A DNA stretch of 64,000 bases, taken from a virus. The notes beneath the pieces were generated by a model. The model had not been told where the DNA came from. It ran no database searches and saw only the letters and a program-made list of their open reading frames with translations. The translations under genes and the position numbers were made by a program. Positions 25,358 to 61,615 of this stretch are shown here, piece by piece. Where the stretch lies: IMG/VR virus record IMGVR_UViG_3300045988_047044, positions 32,182-96,181 of that record; one strand, 5' to 3'. The first letter of the stretch is position 1. Every line of letters begins with the position of its first letter.

Positions 25358-26425
25358 CTAAACTAACTTATCGAATATCATGGGCTGTATCGACATCCAT
25401 AAATTTGCTAGCATTTCTCGCTCTGCGTCAGATGCTTCATCCCAATGTGATACGTACAATTTCTCCGTTCGTTCATTCCTATAAGGAACTTTAAATGAAC
25501 GGTTAATGCGTACACTGTGTGCGAATAGGTCTTTGTCGAAATCAATAGCCCTAAGCGTCTTCTGGAAATCGTTGAACTTATTATTAGGGTCATCGACATC
25601 CCTAACAGACATTCCAGAAGGAAATGGGCCGTTACCATGCCTTGTTATATAAGGACGAGTTACATAACAAGTTTGGATTTCTTTACGTATGCCTGCTTTC
25701 CGCAACAGCTCGTAAGCGTTTTGTGAAGTTGTATTAGACGGAGTGCAATAAGGCATTATGCCGAATCTTTGGTCAAGCAATATTCCCTGTGAACCTTCAA
25801 ACACTAGGTTGTCATAGTTTAACAAGCAATCTTCATTAACCGTACCTGTATGTAAGAAATAAGCATGTGCTAACCTACACCAGTTGTCTAGGTCTATCGA
25901 GGGATATTTACTAGACATGTTGTAATAGTTATCCACTATGGCATTTAATTTCTCACGTAGTATGTAAGGATTCATACAATCTACAACTGTTAAGCTGTAT
26001 CCTGCCTTAACTCGGTCCAAACAAGCTTTAAACCCTGTACCTACAGTACCATGTCGTAAGTTCTCTTCGTTATTAACTTGGGAATAGACATCGAAGGGAA
26101 TTACAACTTGGCAGTGAGGGTGATACTGAACAATGGGACGAACTCCCATTTTAGCTAAGTCTGCACCCTCTAACATAGAGGTAATTGGGTCTACAGTACA
26201 GTATTCGGACCAATACGTCGGCACTCCAAGTAAGGTTCCGCTGCCAAAGTTACTAAAGGTGTGCATCATGTCTCCATGCTTTACAGTATGTCCTACTTGA
26301 TGTCCACCACTAAACCTGACTACTAATACAGACTCTCGCTTACCTATGTACTTGTTACATAAGTTGTGAACTGTCTGTCCCTTACCGCAATCGCCGAAGA
26401 AACTACCTAAAACTATATTTATCAT
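25358..26425 (-). CDS. adenylosuccinate synthetase homolog (PurA-like; possible PurZ)
   Basis: N-terminal P-loop VLGSFFGDCGKGQ (PurA GDEGKGK) and RFSGGHQVGHT (PurA GGHNAGHT); 355 aa, shorter than cellular PurA (~430 aa). Confidence 0.6.
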   Translation of the reverse strand: MINIVLGSFFGDCGKGQTVHNLCNKYIGKRESVLVVRFSGGHQVGHTVKHGDMMHTFSNFGSGTLLGVPTYWSEYCTVDPITSMLEGADLAKMGVRPIVQYHPHCQVVIPFDVYSQVNNEENLRHGTVGTGFKACLDRVKAGYSLTVVDCMNPYILREKLNAIVDNYYNMSSKYPSIDLDNWCRLAHAYFLHTGTVNEDCLLNYDNLVFEGSQGILLDQRFGIMPYCTPSNTTSQNAYELLRKAGIRKEIQTCYVTRPYITRHGNGPFPSGMSVRDVDDPNNKFNDFQKTLRAIDFDKDLFAHSVRINRSFKVPYRNERTEKLYVSHWDEASDAEREMLANLWMSIQPMIFDKLV

Positions 26426-26429
26426 AAAA

Positions 26430-27179
26430 TTACGCTATTGTGCTACTTAATGTATGAGTTATCTCTGCTTCACATTGTCTACAATTCACCCTTATCAAGG
26501 TAACTGCATCCTTATGTCTATCACAGAAATCATTAAGTAGCTGGTCCCTGTATTGCTGCATTTGGAAATCAGCCATGCTATCATAGAATCTATAGGTTGG
26601 GCTGAAGTGCTGTTCCCCATCGTACTCTATGAAATACTGACGTCCTTTATGCTTTACAAAGAAATCAATAACTAATCTATGTGAGGGCCTGTCTATCTCC
26701 TGGTTAATCAATACGAATTGTCGTTCATAACGAATATTACTTCGTTGTAACCACGCTTCAATCATGTTCTCTCCACGAGACTGTTTGCATCTAGGACATC
26801 CACGTCCTTTCAGATGGTTATCTGGAGTTACGTAAAATTCCCCGTGCTTTTTGCACATGATACAAACCTTAGTTCTAGAATTAACATACTCTACTTTAGA
26901 GTAGTTATATCTATCGCCATGTTTGCTAACAGCCTTCCTTACAAATTCTTCGGTAGTAGAAGAGAAGTGGTTTCTTAGTTTAGTACCCTTGCATTTAGGG
27001 CATCCATGCTTCCTATTAATATGTTTGGCGGGAGTTTGTTCAAACTCTCCATGCTCTGGACATATAATGGTTACTTTAGAGTTCATATCTACATAGACGA
27101 CTTTACTATAGTCGTATTTGTCTCCATGAACATCTCTAAACCTAGATATTACTTCCTCCTCGGTCAATTTCTTACCCAT
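26430..27179 (-). CDS. homing-endonuclease-like protein with duplicated zinc-ribbon modules
   Basis: Tandem repeat of YDYSKVVYVDMNSKVTIICPEHGEF...CPKCKG and YNYSKVEYVNSRTKVCIMCKKHGEF...CPRCKQ, then a C-terminal IDFFVKHKGRQYFIEYDGEQHF nuclease-like motif. Confidence 0.45.
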   Translation of the reverse strand: MGKKLTEEEVISRFRDVHGDKYDYSKVVYVDMNSKVTIICPEHGEFEQTPAKHINRKHGCPKCKGTKLRNHFSSTTEEFVRKAVSKHGDRYNYSKVEYVNSRTKVCIMCKKHGEFYVTPDNHLKGRGCPRCKQSRGENMIEAWLQRSNIRYERQFVLINQEIDRPSHRLVIDFFVKHKGRQYFIEYDGEQHFSPTYRFYDSMADFQMQQYRDQLLNDFCDRHKDAVTLIRVNCRQCEAEITHTLSSTIA

Positions 27180-39738: not shown

Positions 39739-39988
39739 GAATCACACAATCCATATTAACTGTGAATTGTGAGTGCAAAGGTAATGAATCTTTCCCATAT
39801 GTAAAAGTTAATATGTATTAAATACGATAGAAGTTTGCTCGGTATTAAACTAAGCTCACATATTCTCTCGAACCGATGAGCTTAGCAGTTATTCAACAAT
39901 TGCAGATACTTTAACTCGTAATAATGACTATGAGTCGAGATAGAAATGACACTGCATATGTTGAAAGAATCATATTAATAAAATGGTG

Positions 39989-40225: not shown

Positions 40226-41920
40226 TTAGACCTTCACAGGCTTCTTCTGCACGCTTGCATTCTTCTTGACAACATCCTTCTCTAGAATCATCATATTAAG
40301 CAACTCTTGATTCATAGCATGCTTAAAGATGTCTCTAGTGGTTTTAGGCACCTGGAACCTCTTCTCTCCAGTAATAAATGAGGATGTTGAATTATTAAGT
40401 CCATTTACTAAGAAGCAATTTGACACTCCTGGAACCAAAGCCACATTAGGTCTTCCCTTATATGCTAAAGGAACTCTCCAAATGATAACTTTGAATGCTC
40501 TTACAAATTCCTTACTGAAATTTGCTTTAAGCAGTCTTTGCTTAAATTCCACGAATGCTTGGTTGTTCAACTTGGTAAAATATGTATGGTTAGTAATTAC
40601 CACACAGCCTCTAGGGAACTCTCCTTCATTCACACCATAATCTTCTTTCATTTTACACAGCATTTCTGCTATATTAATAATAGAAGGATTCTGGCATAAT
40701 GCTTCTTCTTTGTCAGATTTCCATTTCTCAATGACATTCTGACCTTTGAACTTACGTAGAACCATGTTATCCTCTAACACGGCATAGGAGTTCTTGAATA
40801 TTGTAGGAAGTAATTCAGAATGATATAAAGCATATGCTTTACCCAAACTGTAAGCAGATGTTTCGCTATTCTCTATCTCACCATTAGCAGAATGACTTAT
40901 ATCTCTTACTACCAACAACGGAGCTACTCTATTGCGTTTAGCATTATCAACAAATACGTTGAAACTTGCATTAATAGAAGTTTCCATAAATTCTGGAATC
41001 TCTTCGGCAATTTTATCCAATCCGTATGGTTTGAACAGAGTATGTAGAAATCCGCTATTAGAGGGCTTCTTACGGTTCTTTAACCAGTTCTGATACTTCT
41101 CTTTAAGACCTTGATGTTTGAGGAATTTAGAGCCTACTAGCTGTGCCAGCGCCTTTCCAGTAACAGTGTCAAAATCGATTTCCAAGAATTTCTTTTGACT
41201 GATTAACTGCTGCCATTGGGCTGCTTTCCCGCTATTCTTCATCTTCCTATATTTACGATAGGTTGAATAGTCTCCTTCATCCTTAGGTTTACCATAAAGG
41301 CCTTCCGCCAAGAATTTGGCTACTGTGTTACGTGCTTTTGCCTCATCTGTCTTACATGCAACACTGGAACGAACACGAGGAAGATACTTCTTTACTAAAT
41401 CACATGTCTGACCGTTGGCAAGACCTGCGAATATGACTTTCTTGAAGAAGTCCCAATCCAATCTGTGCTTAAAGCCATGGAGTTGAACATCTAAAGCCAT
41501 CATAGTAATGAAATCTTTCCAGCATCCAGCTGCTGCAAAATAAGCAATGTTGGCATGGAATGTGGGTTTGTGATAGATTGCCAACCACAACATTCTCATT
41601 ATACCTTCATTCTTCAAACCTTCTCCTTGCTGTGTATCAAGTTGTATAACTCCTTCCGGGGTAGTTATTCTACATTTACGAGTTATCATTCTCGTATATG
41701 CAGTAAACTTAGTACATAGTAATGGATTAGCTTTCCATAAAGGATACATATCTTTAGCCACTTGCACGTAGGTACGTGGCTGAAGACATTTCTTAAGATT
41801 AACAAACTGGTCTATGAATAACTGATTATTATCCACAAACTTAGGTTTATTCTCATCCCGCCTTTGACGTGCGGCATTAGGGTAAGGCCTCCTTGGCCTT
41901 TGTGCTCCTTTCATTTCCAT
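40226..41920 (-). CDS. large protein with C-terminal vWA domain (possible TROVE/Ro60-like architecture)
   Basis: 564 aa; MIDAS-like LLVVRDISHSANG (DxSxS) at about residue 350 and a long N-terminal domain. The Ro60-like assignment is inferred from architecture only. Confidence 0.45.
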   Translation of the reverse strand: MEMKGAQRPRRPYPNAARQRRDENKPKFVDNNQLFIDQFVNLKKCLQPRTYVQVAKDMYPLWKANPLLCTKFTAYTRMITRKCRITTPEGVIQLDTQQGEGLKNEGIMRMLWLAIYHKPTFHANIAYFAAAGCWKDFITMMALDVQLHGFKHRLDWDFFKKVIFAGLANGQTCDLVKKYLPRVRSSVACKTDEAKARNTVAKFLAEGLYGKPKDEGDYSTYRKYRKMKNSGKAAQWQQLISQKKFLEIDFDTVTGKALAQLVGSKFLKHQGLKEKYQNWLKNRKKPSNSGFLHTLFKPYGLDKIAEEIPEFMETSINASFNVFVDNAKRNRVAPLLVVRDISHSANGEIENSETSAYSLGKAYALYHSELLPTIFKNSYAVLEDNMVLRKFKGQNVIEKWKSDKEEALCQNPSIINIAEMLCKMKEDYGVNEGEFPRGCVVITNHTYFTKLNNQAFVEFKQRLLKANFSKEFVRAFKVIIWRVPLAYKGRPNVALVPGVSNCFLVNGLNNSTSSFITGEKRFQVPKTTRDIFKHAMNQELLNMMILEKDVVKKNASVQKKPVKV

Positions 41921-42300
41921 CTCTTTGTTTAAATTTATTGTTATGAGAGTCTTTCTTTATTCTAAACAATAAACAAGCGGCATTACGGCAATCGGACATA
42001 CGTTAACCCGCTCGCCACTTACAGACCGTAATGCACACTTGACCAGGCAGGAAAGAGGTTTGCTTGGTGACCTATCTGCATGCTGATTATATAATGCAGA
42101 CCGTGTAGATTCTCTCTTACACAATATCTATAGTAGATTTGCACTACTGTTTTCTGATGCTTAATCAGGTGAACTTCTACTGTTCGAATAGATACAGGTT
42201 TCAACTCTTTGATATAGCCTTTAAGTCATAGACACACTCCGGAGTATGTCTACTGGTTCTTCAGACCAAGTTTGCTACCACTACTCGTCAATAGTGGATT

Positions 42301-50736: not shown

Positions 50737-51219
50737 TTATTCCTTACAATATGCAATAACATTTACGTTCATTTGTGAGCCGTCCCTTGCGACGCTTTCA
50801 AACGTTTCTATCGCCTTTGCGGTTACTTCCGTACCTTGTAAATCTGCAAGACATTCCGCTATTGTCTTATTTTCAAACATATTGAAAATACATTTGTCTT
50901 TGTCCGCCTCTGGAAGAATGTCAACCGGTGTAATACGCTTGTTGTTTTCACGGTCGTTGAAAGACCGGAACAAAGAGTTTATAGATACGTTTCTTGCCAC
51001 TCCATTGACCTCAACGGCAACTTGAAAGAACGTATTGCCATTTACAACGCCCTTTGTAATAGTTCCGTTGAACTCGTTAATTTCAGCGGGAAATTTCAAT
51101 TTGTCGCCTACCTTGATAGAATCAGGATTAACACCCAAACGGTTTAAAGCCGCCGCAATTTCGTTTTTGCTTGCTTTCGGTAACTTCTTGTTAACTTCTT
51201 GTAATTCTGCTAAATTCAT
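50737..51219 (-). CDS. hypothetical protein, first gene of the leftward transcription unit
   Basis: 160 aa ORF whose start faces the divergent switch region. Confidence 0.45.
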   Translation of the reverse strand: MNLAELQEVNKKLPKASKNEIAAALNRLGVNPDSIKVGDKLKFPAEINEFNGTITKGVVNGNTFFQVAVEVNGVARNVSINSLFRSFNDRENNKRITPVDILPEADKDKCIFNMFENKTIAECLADLQGTEVTAKAIETFESVARDGSQMNVNVIAYCKE

Positions 51220-51249
51220 AGTTTAATAATTTATTAGTGAAACAATATA

Positions 51250-51271
51250 GAACGGGCTTATTTACCCGTTC
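51250..51271. promoter_or_regulatory. hairpin in the leader of the leftward unit
   Basis: GAACGGG-CTTATTTA-CCCGTTC: 7-bp stem with 8-nt loop, 30 nt upstream of the 50737..51219 start codon. Confidence 0.3.
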
Positions 51272-51455
51272 TTGATTTAATTTTATACGTTTGCAATTAG
51301 TTCTTTATATTCTGACATTGTGATATAACAACCTGTGAGATTAACACGAACTAAACCGTTTGATAAAATAGTGTACATAAGCTAATAATTTTAAAATGAA
51401 TATTATAAAGCAAAACCAAATGATATAAATCTTTTGATTTTCTCCAAACATGGGT

Positions 51456-51742
51456 GAGGGGTGTGAAGGGTAACACGACTGTCGTATCCGCAATATACAC
51501 AAATCTTGCAATATTCACCCAGCATCCGAGTTGGCAATATATAATATGACAACCCACCCCGGGAGTGGGAGGGGTGTGATTTTGAGCACCCGTACTTGTA
51601 AGTTGGCAATATATATTAATTTCTATTCATCTTACTAATTGCAAGCAAGCCCCGAAGGGGCGCAGATTGCCACAGCACGTCATGAAGTTCCGAGTTGGCA
51701 ATATACTTAATATTAACTGTGAATTTGAGTTGGCAATATATA
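51456..51742 (+). repeat. direct repeats (A)GTTGGCAATATA x4 with GC-rich islands, in the divergent switch region
   Basis: Copies start at 51528, 51601, 51692 and 51727 (spacings 73, 91, 35 nt). A GC-rich motif GAGGGGTGTGA occurs at 51456 and 51569, and a GCCCC-GAA-GGGGC hairpin lies at 51649-51661. Confidence 0.6.
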
Positions 51743-51760
51743 ATATATATTAATAATTAT

Positions 51761-51776
51761 ATTACCATTTGGTAAT
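51761..51776. promoter_or_regulatory. perfect 16-bp palindrome ATTACCA-TT-TGGTAAT (candidate operator)
   Basis: Inverted repeat seen directly in the sequence, between the last direct repeat and the rightward promoter. Confidence 0.4.
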
Positions 51777-51794
51777 ATTGAAATATATAACTAA

Positions 51795-51828
51795 TTTTGT
51801 ATTGTCAAATTAAATAGTAATATATTTG
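51795..51828 (+). promoter_or_regulatory. Bacteroidetes-type promoter (-33 TTTG / -7 TAnnTTTG) for the rightward gene block
   Basis: TTTTG at 51795-51799 and TATATTTG at 51821-51828, with 21-bp spacing, about 45 nt upstream of the ATG at 51873. Confidence 0.5.
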
Positions 51829-51872
51829 CGAACTTAAATCGCAGAATTTAATAACAATTAAAATTTATAACA

Positions 51873-52127
51873 ATGGCTAAAGAAGTTAAAGACTTAACAA
51901 GTAAAGAAGTAGATGAAGTAAAAATATTAAAGACTAGTTTGTCAGAATGTCCAGTAAATACTGATTTAGGATGTAATGAATCAAAGGCAACTAACTGGGT
52001 GAAGTTAGACAATAAAACAACAGATGTAAAATTAGAATTATTAAATAAATTGCAAGACGGACTAGCTAATGGAGCTGGTATTGAATATTTAATGCAACTA
52101 TCTTGCATTTATAATAACATTCGCTAA
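51873..52127 (+). CDS. hypothetical protein (first rightward gene)
   Basis: 84 aa ORF starting about 45 nt after the promoter-like element. Confidence 0.4.
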   Translation: MAKEVKDLTSKEVDEVKILKTSLSECPVNTDLGCNESKATNWVKLDNKTTDVKLELLNKLQDGLANGAGIEYLMQLSCIYNNIR

Positions 52128-52129
52128 TA

Positions 52130-52504
52130 ATGAGACATATTGATAGAATTAATAAGCAGTATGAAGAGAAGGAAGTTAAATTGCTATATGATAAAGCTGT
52201 AGCGTTAATGAATCTTCTTAGTGATGAGGAATATGAACAAGTAATTACAGATAATGCAGATATATTTAAATTAGCATCTCATCCCGAGAGGGGTGAGTTC
52301 TATTTACAAGATAAGCACAACTTAGCCCAGATTGTAGACATATTTAGTAAATTCATTAAAACTAAAGGCCTATCTAAGGACGAATTTAAAATAATGACTC
52401 TAGATGAAGTTAAAGAGTATATGGTTGATGTTATTAATGATATCACATCATTCGAACCAGATGAGCTATTCACAATAGTAAAGAACTTAGAGAAACTTCA
52501 ATGA
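52130..52504 (+). CDS. hypothetical acidic protein
   Basis: 124 aa; its start is 2 nt after the previous stop. Confidence 0.4.
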   Translation: MRHIDRINKQYEEKEVKLLYDKAVALMNLLSDEEYEQVITDNADIFKLASHPERGEFYLQDKHNLAQIVDIFSKFIKTKGLSKDEFKIMTLDEVKEYMVDVINDITSFEPDELFTIVKNLEKLQ

Positions 52505-52574
52505 TAACACAAGAAGTAGAGTTAGTAGAAGAAGCATTGTATAGGAATGCATACATATATCCAGGCTGGAAGTA

Positions 52575-52844: not shown

Positions 52845-53484
52845 AATAGCAACAGAATTAGAAGCTAAGACTATGGGGGGGGGGACTCTCTCGGTAATTG
52901 ATAATAAGTGCTGTACTAAAGCTAGAGCACTTGAATTAGGATGTCAGATTAAAAGTGGATTTAGTTATACTGATAATCAGTTAGTAGAGTTAGAAGGTAT
53001 AGAGGCAGCTATAACTGCTCCAAATGTAATCCTTCATTATGGTTGGCAGGATATGCCAATTAATAATATACAGCAATTTAGAGTACGTTTCTCATTTGTT
53101 AATGAGAGTTCAGTGGATGGAGAGCCGTTTGAGTATTCTGACAATACTATGTACTTTACAATTACTCCAAGATTAGAGCAAGGAGAACGAACGTACACTA
53201 AGACTTTAGCAAATCCTCTTAAATATTACTTAGAGAAATTAGCACTTCCTAACCAAGACCCATATAATACACCTGTTTGGATACGTTTTGAGGGATACGT
53301 GATGCTTAGGCAAGTGTCTCAAATTACATTAGCAGTAGATTCTCAATCTGAGAATTGGGCAGAAGGAGTAACATTTCCTTCATCTGGAAGGTGGGTCAAA
53401 ATGAATAATTCTGGTAGAGTATTTAGATTTACTGGTGGGGAAATAGACCTAAACATAGAACTGTATACAGCGTCAGCGCAATGA
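52837..53484 (+). CDS. hypothetical protein with G10 tract near its 5' end
   Basis: 215 aa; homopolymer G10 at 52875-52884 encodes Gly-Gly-Gly at codons 14-16. Confidence 0.45.
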   Translation: MSKIATELEAKTMGGGTLSVIDNKCCTKARALELGCQIKSGFSYTDNQLVELEGIEAAITAPNVILHYGWQDMPINNIQQFRVRFSFVNESSVDGEPFEYSDNTMYFTITPRLEQGERTYTKTLANPLKYYLEKLALPNQDPYNTPVWIRFEGYVMLRQVSQITLAVDSQSENWAEGVTFPSSGRWVKMNNSGRVFRFTGGEIDLNIELYTASAQ

Positions 53485-53678
53485 TTAAAGTAACTGATAA
53501 TAAAGAAGTAAAGGAAACAGTCCTAGCAGGACTTAAAAGGAATAAAGAGAAGTATGGTAAGAAGTATTGTCCATGCTCTTTAGTAAGAGATGAAGATACA
53601 GTATGTATGTGTAAAGAGTTTAGGGAAATGGAAGAAGGGACTTGCCATTGCCAACTTTATGTTAAAACTAAAGACTAA
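53481..53678 (+). CDS. small Cys-rich protein
   Basis: 65 aa with CPCS...CMCKEF...CHCQ; 4-nt overlap with the upstream ORF. Confidence 0.35.
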   Translation: MIKVTDNKEVKETVLAGLKRNKEKYGKKYCPCSLVRDEDTVCMCKEFREMEEGTCHCQLYVKTKD

Positions 53679-55990: not shown

Positions 55991-56332
55991 ATGCCATTAG
56001 TAACAATTCCACTCCGATTATTTGGTAAATCACTTAAAGAGTATAACTTCTCTGTATTTACATTACCTGCTACTTTTAAACCGGTAGAGGAGTTTGGTAT
56101 GCTTTATGTTTACTTCTATAAGGATGAAACTACTACTAGATTAATTTATTGTGGTAAAGATACCAATATTCCTCAAAGGCTAGAAGACCACGAACGTGAT
56201 GACAAAGATATTATAGAAGCATCAAATTACATAGGCGTTATATACTATGCTGATTATGAGCAACTCAAAGCTGATGAAGTTGATATATTAGAAGGCAACA
56301 ACTTCGAGAAGAACATTCAACATAATTGTTGA
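55991..56332 (+). CDS. hypothetical protein
   Basis: 113 aa ORF preceded by an AT-rich promoter-like region. Confidence 0.4.
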   Translation: MPLVTIPLRLFGKSLKEYNFSVFTLPATFKPVEEFGMLYVYFYKDETTTRLIYCGKDTNIPQRLEDHERDDKDIIEASNYIGVIYYADYEQLKADEVDILEGNNFEKNIQHNC

Positions 56333-56782: not shown

Positions 56783-57751
56783 TTACTCATTATCATAATT
56801 GTTAATAATAGTAGTTGCAGGAACTACCCCAAATCCATACTTATTAAATCTTCTCATAAATTCATTCTTATCCTTAATTATATAATTAAATAGAAGTCTA
56901 AGATTTCTAAGTCCATTATTCTCACTAGTCCCCACATAAGGATTATTATTAATAAGTCTATCAATCTCATCAACACTCTTGAAGTTGGGAACTCCAGACT
57001 TACCTGCTCTTTGTTCAAACTCTATTAAGGGATGCAATTGGGAGTTAAACTCTGAAGGAATGGTTAGATATTTATATTTATTTCTAACACTTACTTCGTT
57101 ATACTCTGGATGTTCTTTCATTATCCGTTTAACAAACTCATCTTCTGATACTATATTGTCCTTCATTAGAGCTTGTAGCCTAGGTCCTCCAGTCTTAGCG
57201 TACTGATGATACTCAGTTGGAGTCATATCTTTTAATAATGCTGCTTGCACAGTTTCTATTCCATGCTTAGCTTCATGACCCGGTACATGAGCAAAATCGT
57301 CCCTAAGTATCTCAAAGGCAATTCTATCGAAGTCTTTAGTAGTTAGTATTTCCTCACTAGGGACAGACCTAGAGAACTTTATTATATCATTATCCAAACC
57401 TACATCTCTCTTATTTCTGGGAAGTACAGTTAAGTTTCCATTGTTATATCTATCGACAAATCTCTTAGCTGCTTCGCCATACTTAGTCCCTAATTCTGCA
57501 TCTATACTAGCGATTCTCTGTTGCGTTTCAGGATTTAGTAGATATTCCACGAAATTCTGTATGTTCTTATTAATGTCTAAATCACCATTCATAGAAGTTC
57601 CTGTATCAATGAACTGGCTCTTCTCTAATGGCTTAGCTCCTTTCTTAAACACTCTACCATTCTTCAAATCATCTCTAAGACTAAAGATTACTTGGTTATT
57701 AGAATATCCATTATCATATACATTATTAAAGATTACCCCGTCAGCACTCAT
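56783..57751 (-). CDS. hypothetical protein (virion or lysis module)
   Basis: 322 aa ORF downstream of the large glucosaminidase-domain gene. Confidence 0.45.
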   Translation of the reverse strand: MSADGVIFNNVYDNGYSNNQVIFSLRDDLKNGRVFKKGAKPLEKSQFIDTGTSMNGDLDINKNIQNFVEYLLNPETQQRIASIDAELGTKYGEAAKRFVDRYNNGNLTVLPRNKRDVGLDNDIIKFSRSVPSEEILTTKDFDRIAFEILRDDFAHVPGHEAKHGIETVQAALLKDMTPTEYHQYAKTGGPRLQALMKDNIVSEDEFVKRIMKEHPEYNEVSVRNKYKYLTIPSEFNSQLHPLIEFEQRAGKSGVPNFKSVDEIDRLINNNPYVGTSENNGLRNLRLLFNYIIKDKNEFMRRFNKYGFGVVPATTIINNYDNE

Positions 57752-57834: not shown

Positions 57835-60831
57835 CTACTCTGTAAGGTCTCTTGGCAAATCTCTCTCTCTAGCCTTAGCTGCTTTCTCTGCCTTACCTGG
57901 TATAGAATGATTAGCTGCTGTTCTAGGATTACCTAATTTACCTTGATACCATATACCAACTTCAGGAGCACCTTCATGAATAGCATCCCACCTTTCTGGA
58001 CTGTATAATGTTAACTTAGTAGGAGCATCAGTATCATGTACTACATGTATGGATTGTCTAGGTCCCCAACCTACATTATTGGGCAATGGCTCAACTGAAG
58101 GAGTCCCTTTATCTATAGCCTTACTAATTACTCTAGCTCTAGCCCATTTATTACCACCAACAGCCATATCTTTTACTGGCTTTAACTTAGGTCCAAAGTT
58201 ACGCATTCCAAATCCACCTGCCAAATTATCTATGTTAAAGAAATCTGCAACTACCGGATTCATTCCTGTAGTCTTAGAGAGCATATCAGCCCAGTCTTTA
58301 TATTTGTCATTACTAGCTACATTAGTTATCTTATTAACTGCTTCATTACCTGCATATCCACCTGCTACTGATAATGGTCCAAATATTGCACCTGTTAATA
58401 ATGTACTAACATAAGGTGCGGCTTCTCTCCTTCCTCTATCTACAGCTCCTGCTAGATTTATATTTCTAGGAGTAACTGTTACTTCTGGTAAAGTTACATT
58501 ATTCATACCATTCTCATTATTAACTGGCAATACTATATTACCTCTCTTATCATAACCTCCCATATATTTAATAGGTCGAGCTGGATTCTTGTATTTAATA
58601 ATCATACCATTCTCACCTTTAGGAATACCATTATATACCCCAGTAAGTACTTTAGCATAATTAGTAGCTTCTGCATATCTTCTCTTACCTTTATTAGAAC
58701 CTGTAAGCTTAGCTACAAACTTATTAATATCATCATTCTCATCAAAGTCATATAGTCTCTTTAGGAATTGTACCTTATCTGCTGCATACTCATCCATAGA
58801 ATTATAAGACCTAAACTTCTGCTTAATAGCTTCACCTTTAGCATTCTTATCATTACCAGTTACATAATCACCTTTCCATGAACTACCAGTAGTTAAATTG
58901 CCAAAGTTGTACTTACCTTGTGCAGACCTACCCCAACTAGATTCTAATGCGTCTTGTGCTAATAACATTCTAATTGCATTATCATTAGTAATACCTGCCT
59001 TCTTATAGGCATTAATAAGTTCTGTAGACCATTGCTTTCTGTTAGTATATGGACTCTTCCAAGTTGAGTTGGCAGTTTTAGTAACAGGTTTATCAGTAAC
59101 AGATTTACTAGCTACTGGCTTATTAATTACTGGCTCTGCTATAGGATTATTAGCTACTACATCAGGTTCATTAGTATCTCTTACTGGTACTACTAATGCT
59201 TCCGGCTTATCGTAAACTGTATTAAAGTTATATTCACTGAATGGATTAATAGGATTAGTAATATCAGTGTAATCTATTGTAGGATTACTTACTGGATTAT
59301 AACTTACGAACTTCGTTCCTTGTTGAGCTTTCTTGATTCGCTTCTTATAGGTTGGGCGACTTGATTTGATGAACTTCTTACGCATATCCCTCTTACCGTT
59401 AATCTCTTCTTGTTTCTTTAGCAGAGGGGACTTCTTAAAATCAAATCTTCCACCATGTGCCATAGTTACCAATTCCGGATTTCTAACAGACTTACCTTCA
59501 ATCCATATAGGATTAGATTGCTGTAATATGAAAGGACGACCTACTTTATCCATTAATGCAGCTTGTTTAGTAAGCCTAACTTGGTTAGCAGTATTAGGAG
59601 AATCATTCCACCTCTTAGCATAGTCAGCAGGATTAAATTTCCACATATCTTGAGAAGTCTGTCTTAATTTACCTTTGTTCATTTGAAACTTAACCAAGTG
59701 TCCAGCAACATCATCAATAGGACCTATATAATCAGTTCCTGGCTGCCTAAAGGTCATGAACTCTTTATCTCCCATACGCATTACTGGTTCAGCTTCCTTA
59801 CCAATAATTTTACCAATCGGATTCTTTCCTGCGTATTCTGTAAATTCAGAAGCTTCTTGAAATTTCAATGGCCTACCAGAGGGTACTACTGCACTCATTT
59901 CGTATCTTCTGTTATATATCCCAGGATAAAGCTGCTCATATCTATCGCCATGACTAAATCCTCTCCTTGCTTCATTACGGCTAATAGGTTTGATATTACT
60001 AGTAGCTTTATTAAAGAACATTCTTTTAACTACTGGATTCTCATCAAATATATATTTAGCTAATAGATTCCTGCCTTCTAAATTTCCTCCACCTAGTATT
60101 GAAGAACCTGTGTAGTCGGCTGGCATTGTTTTTATATCTTGCAAACTTACTGATGCATTACCGTTAGTTCTCTTGGCAGCTTTATAAGCAGCCACTTTTA
60201 ATGGTAATTTCTCTACCTTAGATAGAAATGGAGTAATTCTGTTAGCTGTTGCCATTGCTATATTAGAAGGAGTCCTTGCTTCCTTATTAAATATCCAATG
60301 ATTCTTGTTAATAGGATTCCAAGCTAGGTCAGCGTCACCTTTAATTGATTTAGTTATTAACTTGTCCTTTCCAATCTTATATCCTTTAGCACCACCATAC
60401 CAAGCTCCTGGATTAGTATAAACTCCAATTTCAGACGGAATGCCAGTCTTATTTTCTAACCAGTTACCCCAGCCCCCGGTAAGCTTATCCACAGTCATAT
60501 TACCTAAAGCTCCTCCTACAACAGCGGCTGGAGTTGTTACTAATGCAGCACCAGCTGCTGAAGGAAGTATAGTTCTTTCTATTCCAACTAGAGGATTAGT
60601 CTCGTTGGACATGGAAGCTTTGAATCTATCTCTAGCTCCTTTAATAGGATGCCAATAGTCTCTATTTCTTTCAGCAGCTGACCTGGTATCATTAGAAGGT
60701 TCTCCACCTAAATCTACAATGGAATACTGTCTAGGTTTAGCTTTAATAGGTTCATGAGTTTCTGGCCTAACTACTTTAGTATTATCGGACTCTATGGTAT
60801 TTCCTTGTTGTAGTTTAGGTATTACTTTCAT
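57835..60831 (-). CDS. large virion-associated protein with FlgJ-type glucosaminidase (peptidoglycan hydrolase) domain
   Basis: 998 aa; NAYKKAGITNDNAIRMLLAQDALESSWGRSAQGKYNFGNLT resembles the mannosyl-glycoprotein endo-beta-N-acetylglucosaminidase / FlgJ motif (AQAALESGWG); also Gly-rich segments. Confidence 0.55.
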   Translation of the reverse strand: MKVIPKLQQGNTIESDNTKVVRPETHEPIKAKPRQYSIVDLGGEPSNDTRSAAERNRDYWHPIKGARDRFKASMSNETNPLVGIERTILPSAAGAALVTTPAAVVGGALGNMTVDKLTGGWGNWLENKTGIPSEIGVYTNPGAWYGGAKGYKIGKDKLITKSIKGDADLAWNPINKNHWIFNKEARTPSNIAMATANRITPFLSKVEKLPLKVAAYKAAKRTNGNASVSLQDIKTMPADYTGSSILGGGNLEGRNLLAKYIFDENPVVKRMFFNKATSNIKPISRNEARRGFSHGDRYEQLYPGIYNRRYEMSAVVPSGRPLKFQEASEFTEYAGKNPIGKIIGKEAEPVMRMGDKEFMTFRQPGTDYIGPIDDVAGHLVKFQMNKGKLRQTSQDMWKFNPADYAKRWNDSPNTANQVRLTKQAALMDKVGRPFILQQSNPIWIEGKSVRNPELVTMAHGGRFDFKKSPLLKKQEEINGKRDMRKKFIKSSRPTYKKRIKKAQQGTKFVSYNPVSNPTIDYTDITNPINPFSEYNFNTVYDKPEALVVPVRDTNEPDVVANNPIAEPVINKPVASKSVTDKPVTKTANSTWKSPYTNRKQWSTELINAYKKAGITNDNAIRMLLAQDALESSWGRSAQGKYNFGNLTTGSSWKGDYVTGNDKNAKGEAIKQKFRSYNSMDEYAADKVQFLKRLYDFDENDDINKFVAKLTGSNKGKRRYAEATNYAKVLTGVYNGIPKGENGMIIKYKNPARPIKYMGGYDKRGNIVLPVNNENGMNNVTLPEVTVTPRNINLAGAVDRGRREAAPYVSTLLTGAIFGPLSVAGGYAGNEAVNKITNVASNDKYKDWADMLSKTTGMNPVVADFFNIDNLAGGFGMRNFGPKLKPVKDMAVGGNKWARARVISKAIDKGTPSVEPLPNNVGWGPRQSIHVVHDTDAPTKLTLYSPERWDAIHEGAPEVGIWYQGKLGNPRTAANHSIPGKAEKAAKARERDLPRDLTE

Positions 60832-61073
60832 TATTTATTCGATTTATCGTTATTGGTGAATCTCTTCCATATTCCTGTTACTGAATCTATGCCAAGCAAT
60901 CCCATACAACACAACAGGACTGTGTCTATCATTAATGGGGCTTGAATTACGTTTATTGCACAGTATATTAACACTCCCAAGCAGACAAACCACCCTACTA
61001 CTCCGCAGAGTCTCTTAGATGATATGCCAGAGTGGGATGTGAATACTTGCTTTAAGAATGTTACAAACTTCAT
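60831..61073 (-). CDS. small membrane protein (holin-like candidate)
   Basis: 80 aa with two TM segments (LCGVVGWFVCLGVLIYCAI; LLCCMGLLGI); its start overlaps the upstream stop by 1 nt. Confidence 0.35.
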   Translation of the reverse strand: MKFVTFLKQVFTSHSGISSKRLCGVVGWFVCLGVLIYCAINVIQAPLMIDTVLLCCMGLLGIDSVTGIWKRFTNNDKSNK

Positions 61074-61615
61074 TATATAATTACATTTATAGAAATATTA
61101 GCTGTGTCACCTCCTATATATGCCTGATTTATTGGTATTTCAGTAGTTACCCCAGATTGGCATACTGCATTATTTGTTACACTATCTGCATCTACAGTCA
61201 CCCTGTATGTACTGAAATATCCAGTGAACAATAATTTAGAGACATTAGTTAAATCAGTTGGTAAATCAAAGTGGAAGTTTCTGTCAAAGAAAGTTGCCCC
61301 TTGATAGTCTAGAGTTCCAGACCTAGGAATTGTTATAAACCCGTCTGGAACTCCATCTATGTAAACATCTGCTACAAAGTCATAGGATTTAGACGTGAGT
61401 GTAGAATTAGTTATTGAGACATGTACATTAAAATCATACGGGAATGTTGATAGCTGTACATCGTCTTCCTTAACTAATTGATTATTAGTGTAACTACCAT
61501 TAGCTTCTAGTCCGAAGAACTCTACTCTATCTCTAGTGGCACACTTGGTTGGAGTATTTGTACCTCCACCAGCTAAATTAATTAAATATTGTTCTGTTGC
61601 AATTTTATTTGTCAT
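61073..61615 (-). CDS. hypothetical structural protein
   Basis: 180 aa, Thr/Ser/Asn-rich and beta-rich composition. Confidence 0.4.
   Translation of the reverse strand: MTNKIATEQYLINLAGGGTNTPTKCATRDRVEFFGLEANGSYTNNQLVKEDDVQLSTFPYDFNVHVSITNSTLTSKSYDFVADVYIDGVPDGFITIPRSGTLDYQGATFFDRNFHFDLPTDLTNVSKLLFTGYFSTYRVTVDADSVTNNAVCQSGVTTEIPINQAYIGGDTANISINVII

Follow-up and report, generated by a model that had tools for sequence, protein, structure and literature searches.

A conserved noncoding spacer between divergent early gene blocks of an uncultured human-gut phage, a candidate replication origin

What is the function of the noncoding DNA that separates two diverging blocks of early genes in a large phage? 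The locus considered here lies in a stretch of 64,000 nucleotides (nt), referred to below as the window, taken from IMG/VR virus record IMGVR_UViG_3300045988_047044 and belonging to a large uncultured phage of ca. 183 kb from the human gut. An earlier note on this DNA had described a 650-bp spacer at positions 51220 to 51872. The divergent gap is clearly there, but not all of it is noncoding, and since a conserved gene of 31 amino acids (aa) and a hairpin occupy 51249 to 51378, the true noncoding spacer is 51379 to 51872 (494 bp). We tentatively regard the core of this spacer as most likely the replication origin of the phage, with iterons and an unwinding element placed next to early promoters.

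The spacer, its relatives, and its repeat array

Near-identical genomes are frequent in human-gut metagenomes, where complete contigs measure ca. 180 to 189 kb, and a protein search with a 998-aa neighbor of the region returned thousands of near-identical variants. No phage of the INPHARED collection matched the region in a DNA search or the 160-aa protein of its left flank in a protein search, and on this sequence evidence the phage appears to have no cultured relative in that collection. The close relatives compared were 16 IMG/VR contigs and many metagenome contigs, 93 to 98% identical at the region. A much more distant lineage, represented by the 185-kb contig L189, was recovered by a 20-mer scan, and a third deep lineage, L218, was recovered with several intermediate strains via homologs of the 124-aa protein encoded to the right of the spacer. 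Compared with L189, the window has flanking proteins that are 45 to 69% identical and flanking genes that are 64 to 74% identical at the DNA level; the aligned spacer shows 82.6% DNA identity, above that of the flanking genes. Constraint on this noncoding DNA is thus stronger than on the flanking genes. None of the longer open reading frames (ORFs) inside the spacer survives the insertions and deletions of the relatives, even with read-through of TAG.

Four direct repeats had been noticed earlier, and they are confirmed. The 12-mer GTTGGCAATATA occurs exactly at 51530, 51602, 51694, and 51729, each time on the plus strand and all within 212 bp, with start-to-start spacings of 72, 92, and 35 bp. 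The extended repeat unit is (Y)GAGTTGGCAATATA, and the units are 14 to 17 bp long: copy 1 (GAGTTGGCAATATATA) at 51528 to 51543, copy 2 (AAGTTGGCAATATATA, with a GAG... form in most relatives) at 51600 to 51615, copy 3 (GAGTTGGCAATATAC) at 51692 to 51707, and copy 4 (again GAGTTGGCAATATATA) at 51727 to 51742. There is no other copy of the 12-mer without mismatches in the 64 kb, the nearest being one match with a single mismatch at 41574. Likewise, in the 16 related contigs of 66 to 162 kb, the 20-mer form of the motif is confined to the spacer locus. Scans of IMG/VR and GTDB genomes for two spaced copies gave, outside this phage, only chance matches in tandem coding repeats, and a host copy of the array was not found in the two-copy scans of the GTDB genomes. 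Partial copies are seen in the spacer itself, namely, GCAATAT at 51490 and 51508, TTGGTAATAT at 51769, and an inverted TGGCAAT at 51666 to 51672.

The four copies fared differently when compared with relatives, a check that the earlier note had asked for. Copies 3 and 4 are conserved in all lineages, and a 27-nt stretch at copy 4 is identical in L189. Copy 1, however, is missing in L214 and L217, where a nuclease cassette takes its place, and is therefore dispensable. Copy 2 is degenerate in L189 and L218, yet an element of the GG(C/A)A(A)TAT type always lies 25 to 27 nt before a hairpin module that we call block E (51632 to 51674, plus strand). To the right of block E the geometry is invariant: copy 3 always follows after 17 nt and copy 4 always lies 35 nt after copy 3, with a 24-nt filler between the two copies. 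These distances were measured by script in eight sequences from the three deep lineages (the window, L138, L189, L218, L214, L217, L215, and L220), and they are fixed while the filler bases between block E, copy 3, and copy 4 vary. Beside this, an exact 16-mer, ATATTAACTGTGAATT, is shared by the filler of copies 3 and 4 (51710 to 51725) and the leader of a tRNA-Tyr gene (39753 to 39768), a leader preceded by a TACCTTTG −7 box. L189 does not conserve the 16-mer.

The rest of the array turns over, with extra variant copies, duplications of modules, and loss of copy 1. Just upstream of copy 1 is a hypervariable segment (51484 to 51527) of degenerate 18-nt repeats of the GTATCCGCAATATAC type, which include the GCAATAT half-copies. 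It carries a 35-nt insertion in L138, has four units in L208 and three in L218, is replaced in L206, and is the landing site of the mobile nuclease gene. Judged by sequence comparison, unique asymmetric sites in one orientation, exact spacing with variable filler, copy turnover, and a related dyad are the behavior of a protein-binding array.

Hairpin modules, melting tract, and promoters

Blocks that had been labeled GC-rich islands turned out to be conserved hairpin modules. The sequence GAGGGGTGTGA is, as had been reported, present twice only, at 51456 and 51569. The first copy belongs to block A (51438 to 51483, plus strand), a G-rich module, TTTTCTCCAAACATGGGTGAGGGGTGTGAAGGGTAACACGACTGTC, that is retained in the three deep lineages and duplicated in L211, L212, and L216. 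The second belongs to block C (51552 to 51599, plus strand), which holds GC hairpins with the stem CCCAC/GTGGG or, alternatively, CACCCC/GGGGTG, a G-run, a T-run, and ACCCGTACTT. About 47 nt of block C are nearly identical in L189, and the stem bases differ in L218; CACCCC/GGGGTG and TGATTTT are retained, with a C5/G5 version in L218, and in type-II strains a paired insertion of T and G preserves the outer stem. The minimum-energy fold of the block consists of two side-by-side hairpins with the T-run inside a loop. The inserted nuclease ORF of L214 and L217 terminates exactly at block C, and for this reason we consider that this block, terminator-like in the rightward direction, may act as a transcript end.

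Block E, CTTACTAATTGCAAGCAA-GCCCC-GAA-GGGGC-GCAGATTGCCACA, is the most conserved element of the spacer and is found in all lineages. Its GCCCC-GAA-GGGGC hairpin, which the earlier note had already pointed out, is at 51649 to 51661, within a structure at 51645 to 51663 that has a 5-bp stem (7 bp with a bulge) and a GNA triloop. The inverted TGGCAAT core lies in the same block, as ATTGCCA within GCAGATTGCCACA. The loop is GAA, GCA, or GGA, and the stem variants include one double compensatory change (GCTCC/GGAGC) and one wobble (GCCCT). Because the loop stays GNA and the stem changes are compensatory or wobble, the comparison argues that the hairpin itself is under selection; the covariation is thin, amounting to one double change, and 33 of 500 shuffles were as good. 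Block A and the unit of copy 2 with block E are duplicated in some assemblies, which explains why short contigs often break at the spacer.

Copy 4 runs into the least stable 60-mer of the whole window, a tract at 51736 to 51795 that resembles a DNA-unwinding element. Its nearest-neighbor ΔG is −54.6, compared with a mean of −74.1 and a standard deviation of 4.5 for all 60-mers of the window (z of ca. +4.3). It begins 8 to 9 nt into copy 4, and the same position is the minimum of the locus in L189, L160, L138, and L218. What is conserved across lineages is the low stability; the central sequence is not.

The melting tract also contains an inverted repeat. ATTACCATTTGGTAAT, at 51762 to 51777, had been taken for a perfect 16-bp palindrome and is in fact imperfect, with 7-bp arms, ATTACCA and TGGTAAT, around a nonsymmetric TT; the half-site resembles the repeat core. 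An ATTACC...GGTAAT inverted repeat occurs in all three lineages at different positions and with 2, 0, or 9 central bases, in L189 as AATTACCGGTAATT between block A and copy 1 and in L218 as TTACCTATACTATAGGTAA before block C.

Two overlapping promoters of the Bacteroidota type are predicted for the rightward early operon (51768 to 51828, plus strand). The consensus for the sigma factor ABfr of Bacteroidota is a −7 box, TAnnTTTG, with a −33 TTTG ca. 19 to 21 nt upstream (PMC7366714). The match that had been proposed, TTTG-N21-TATATTTG, stands at 51796 to 51828, and a second strict match, TTTG-N20-TAATTTTG at 51768 to 51799, overlaps it. The shared TTTG at 51796 to 51799 is conserved in all lineages; L189 and L218 have a weaker −7 box. 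Two of the six strict matches in the window are thus in the spacer, and TAnnTTTG shows no enrichment in the window overall. The strict arrangement (TTTG-N19-21-TAnnTTTG) was found in the spacer, at another divergent junction in a relative, and upstream of the inserted nuclease gene, and because strict promoters of this type stand at three such kinds of site, a Bacteroidota host is likely.

Replication origin or another control region

The earlier note had left open whether the region is an origin, an iteron array, an operator, or a binding array for a regulator. Its binding-array side is well supported, in that neither copies 3 and 4 nor the distance between them varies, the motif is specific to the locus, the copies turn over, and the least stable duplex adjoins the array. 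We tentatively rank an origin, rather than an operator, first because the array adjoins a melting tract that is conserved as a property, because it lies between divergent early operons, and because the first sizeable leftward gene is weakly similar to single-stranded DNA-binding proteins (SSB). Three TGGCAAT-type sites, one inverted (block E) and two direct (copies 3 and 4), stand at fixed distances from the GC hairpin with its GNA triloop, and the DNA that melts most readily in the window adjoins them directly. Iterons and an AT-rich unwinding element are the general plan of such origins (PMC5043065). At least three direct repeats of a replicon-specific motif are expected there, and the spacer has four exact 12-mers, next to an AT-rich unwinding element that also contains promoters.

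In an origin of this kind, a sequence-specific protein, encoded by the phage or by the host, would load on the TGGCAAT-type sites, and the upstream copies 1 and 2, dispensable or degenerate, would add cooperative binding. The complex would then open the adjacent AT-rich tract, allowing a helicase to be loaded. The GC hairpin modules may act as signals for priming or for transcript termination. At the right edge, the Bacteroidota-type promoter would fire the rightward early operon, and its transcription could aid opening.

The spacer shares with the iteron origins of lambda (ori) and of P1, F, RK2, R6K, and pSC101 (oriV) the presence of replicon-specific repeats by an AT-rich unwinding element and near a promoter (PMC5043065). 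It differs from them in that its repeats are shorter, irregular, and unphased, in that no Rep- or O-type gene is adjacent or overlapping and no DnaA boxes are present, and in that conserved GC hairpin modules are interleaved with the repeats. Operators of Rep genes carry inverted half-sites near the promoter, and the window lineage likewise has an inverted half-site pair near its promoter. The oriV of RSF1010 (IncQ) combines iterons, GC-rich and AT-rich stretches, and small hairpins that are priming signals, and oriE of T4, itself a large virulent phage, pairs short iterons with an early transcript; the layout of the spacer is similar to both, with no sequence similarity. A RepB'-type primase or a RepEA/EB homolog was not identified, and a priming role of the spacer hairpins is putative. 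The closest precedent for the reasoning is the origin of the satellite PLE of Vibrio cholerae, where a noncoding region with four repeats between divergent operons was first proposed and later demonstrated to be an origin to which a RepA_N initiator binds (Barth et al. 2019, PMC7145576). The same argument is made here, and both regions are long, noncoding, flanked by divergent operons, and equipped with four repeats. PLE differs in being a satellite with its own adjacent repA, semipalindromic repeats, and a poly-A tract, whereas the spacer belongs to a 183-kb phage.

Several observations weigh against an origin. No initiator or Rep-type gene was found next to the array, the flanking ORFs giving no Rep, O, or helix-turn-helix (HTH) matches in Pfam or PHROGs; an initiator may be encoded in the ca. 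120 kb of the genome outside the window. No DnaA box (TTATCCACA, with up to one mismatch) was found in 51379 to 51872; such boxes are common at iteron origins but not universal. At 72, 92, and 35 bp, the repeats are 6.9, 8.8, and 3.3 helical turns apart, and the 30 bp from the inverted site to copy 3 are not in helical phase either, whereas the iterons of plasmids are repeated in phase with the DNA helix (PMC5043065). The motif is identical across lineages, whereas initiators and their iterons often codiverge. The AT-rich tract also holds host-type promoters, which in Bacteroidota are themselves AT-rich. Cumulative GC skew, recommended in the earlier note as a check, was uninformative, since the curve follows gene direction and reverts at 56.3 kb after 4.5 kb. 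Finally, the assignment comes from comparing sequences.

The kind of element considered here (repeats, an unwinding tract, and promoters) is a textbook one, found in this case in an unstudied phage, and it is the abundance of the phage and the depth of the noncoding conservation, rather than a new principle, that give grounds for interest. A known origin or early-control region would aid the construction of replicons or reporters for Bacteroidota phages, and a known origin position would support replication-state estimates from metagenomic read depth. It would also help to identify the protein that reads a motif kept constant while the neighboring genes diverged by half.

A transcription-control array is possible, though we find it less probable than an origin. 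Here a phage early or middle regulator, or one of the host, would bind the TGGCAAT-type sites and activate or shut off the early operons. The sites are indeed placed between divergent early operons, at about −70 to −300 with respect to the two strict host-type promoters; copy 4 is a constant 146 to 147 nt from the start codon, and the fixed spacing would fit a stereospecific nucleoprotein complex. In the window lineage, moreover, the inverted repeat with its related half-site shares bases with the −33 element of the first promoter. That lone promoter-overlapping site, however, is not at this place in L189 or L218, and the conserved copies overlap no core promoter, standing at least 55 nt upstream of the −33 element. 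Known operators of phage early switches overlap core promoters and are mostly dyad symmetric. The spacer thus resembles OR and OL of lambda and the p4/p6 regions of phi29 in having multiple candidate sites between divergent early promoters, but it differs from them in that the conserved sites are asymmetric and 60 to 300 bp upstream and in that no adjacent regulator gene was detected. Neither an HTH nor any other regulator was detected in the 16 neighboring ORFs, most of them orphans, and genome sequence of up to 162 kb shows the motif nowhere else. A transcription array also leaves the property-conserved melting tract and the GNA hairpin unexplained.

It is unlikely that the repeats are tandem phage-specific promoters, each starting a short RNA in the rightward direction with blocks C and E as the folded parts, so that the GC blocks would be short structured RNAs or leaders, or that block E is a hairpin promoter like those of phage N4. 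All repeat copies do have the same orientation, a copy-like element is fixed 10 to 27 nt before blocks C and E in all lineages, and the inserted nuclease gene has its 3' end at the block C hairpin and T-run. Of the one-sided changes, four independent ones preserve pairing as G-U solely when the plus strand is read as RNA, versus one for the minus strand, but the covariation is weak, with its one double change. The motif was found before no other gene in the window or in the related contigs, and as a promoter itself it fits neither the Bacteroidota nor the sigma-70 consensus, nor that of sigma-54. Block C persists where copy 1 is lost. Folding of the whole region gave z of ca. 0 on both strands, RNAalifold found only local hairpins, and Rfam had nothing relevant for the spacer at the gathering threshold or at E values up to 10.

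The N4 comparison deserves separate mention. N4 has three hairpin promoters for its virion RNA polymerase, with a purine at the loop center and with −10G, −8G, and +1C (PMC4496689). The 5-bp stem of block E with its GNA loop has the form of these early-promoter hairpins; both have, within an early control region, a short GC stem whose three-base loop is closed by a C-G pair. The spacer differs in having one such hairpin (three are found in the window versus 1.2 expected) and a loop center of A, C, or G; it is C in many strains, and N4 needs a purine at −11. We therefore set aside the N4-like promoter family, which fits in stem and loop size but not in the single hairpin or the nonpurine loop center of many strains.

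Quite doubtful, too, is the more radical proposal that the GC modules are working parts of an undescribed type of Bacteroidota-phage origin or that blocks A, C, and E encode structured small RNAs of a new kind. In such an origin, RNA made by rightward transcription of the G-rich blocks A and C would remain paired with the DNA in persistent hybrids, which would stop at the hairpin and T-run and would prime DNA synthesis. A phage-specific primase, polymerase, or helicase loader would be brought to the melting tract by the GNA hairpin, extruded by supercoiling, together with the three TGGCAAT sites at their fixed distances.

The spacer is very unlikely to mark a genome terminus or packaging site, be it pac, cos, or the boundary of a terminal repeat, in which the terminase small subunit would bind the repeats and the GC palindrome would be cut. 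One inverted and two direct sites do recall the R3/R2/R1 layout of lambda cosB, and several metagenomic contigs end within the spacer. Those ends, however, are scattered, lying behind copy 4, at copy 3, or in block A, and fall at repeats and duplicated modules where assembly breaks are expected; full-length contigs of ca. 183 kb carry the locus internally at varied coordinates, and the neighbors are small early-type ORFs with no terminase gene nearby.

Flanking genes, inserted nuclease, and other features

On the left, the first sizeable leftward gene (50737 to 51219, minus strand) encodes the 160-aa protein mentioned above, which has an N-terminal helical hairpin and a β-barrel. It is weakly like the OB-fold SSB of phages, and a PDB sequence search with it gave no match. 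Between this gene and the 31-aa ORF, a terminator scan detected an 8-bp hairpin (51249 to 51272, minus strand) that is terminator- or attenuator-like; its stem shows the compensatory variants GGG/CCC, GAG/CTC, and GGA/TCC among relatives, and L189 has a different hairpin there. The 31-aa gene (MYTILSNGLVRVNLTGCYITMSEYKELIANV; 51283 to 51378, minus strand) is conserved in two of the three lineages, with its frame kept in two diverged haplotypes, a homolog in L189, and none in L218. Upstream of the leftward genes, an AT-rich block at 51385 to 51437 is invariant among close relatives and mostly retained in L189 and L218, and it may be the leftward promoter region; the minus strand of the spacer has no TTTG-N-TAnnTTTG match.

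On the right, the first two genes, of 84 and 124 aa (51873 to 52504, plus strand), gave no family matches, and the predicted structure of the 124-aa protein is a generic helical bundle with no match to a DNA-binding fold. Many close relatives (L152, L155, L158, and others) have ca. 300 bp of extra DNA after the 124-aa gene, at about window position 52505, that is absent from the window, and the gene content of the early operon differs among strains. One of its products, a 65-aa protein (53481 to 53678, plus strand), gave a match to the ferredoxin-thioredoxin reductase catalytic chain (PF02943, E value of 1.5e-13) and is conserved at every related locus.

The gene inserted in the spacer of L214 (1531 to 2421) and L217 (1547 to 2416), corresponding to window positions 51484 to 51551, is a free-standing nuclease gene. 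Its ORF of 289 to 296 aa stands in place of the hypervariable segment and copy 1 and is preceded by its own consensus Bacteroidota promoter. The protein has a weak HTH at the N terminus and a domain of the EndoVII/HNH type at the C terminus (phrog_3322, E value of 6e-24). L206 shows an apparent footprint of the cassette with the gene absent. Other likely mobile nuclease genes in the window, with a weak GIY-YIG match or of the HNH/homing endonuclease type, are at 55991 to 56332 (plus strand), 56783 to 57751 (minus strand), and 26430 to 27179 (minus strand), and the 322-aa ORF and its neighbors at 56.3 to 57.8 kb are absent from the relative L160.

The window as a whole contains 30 tRNA genes, DnaB-like and other helicases, and a Sak4-like annealing protein. 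Directly upstream of at least five of the tRNA genes (tRNA-Ser, -Arg, -Lys, -Pro, and -Ile) is a shared element of ca. 55 nt on the minus strand, at 30923 to 30980, 35250 to 35310, 37033 to 37090, 37488 to 37545, and 37664 to 37720. It has the form AAGAAG(G/A)C..ACAGCA(C)...G(C/T)CTTCTG(A/T)(T/G)GAT, with complementary ends and a 3' end resembling a CUGAUGA core, and matched no Rfam family at E values up to 1; it may be a hairpin in the leader, or it may act in self-cleavage or processing. A RAGATH-34 RNA was matched at 42191 to 42297 (minus strand), with 123 bits against a gathering score of 60.7. A tRNA with the anticodon CTA (an amber suppressor, called Pyl by ARAGORN) is encoded at 37836 to 37908 on the minus strand and hints at reassignment of TAG in part of the genome. 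The 998-aa ORF with a glucosaminidase domain (57835 to 60831, minus strand) has 1,240 to 1,352 aa in thousands of near-identical relatives; in the window the ORF may be split (57835 to 60831 and 61073 to 61615, both on the minus strand), or its start may be hidden by an in-frame stop, possibly a recoded TAG. Lastly, the ORF at 25358 to 26425 (minus strand) is similar to PurZ/adenylosuccinate synthetase (phrog_1211, E value of 8e-45), a match that could mean DNA with a modified adenine, 2-aminoadenine.

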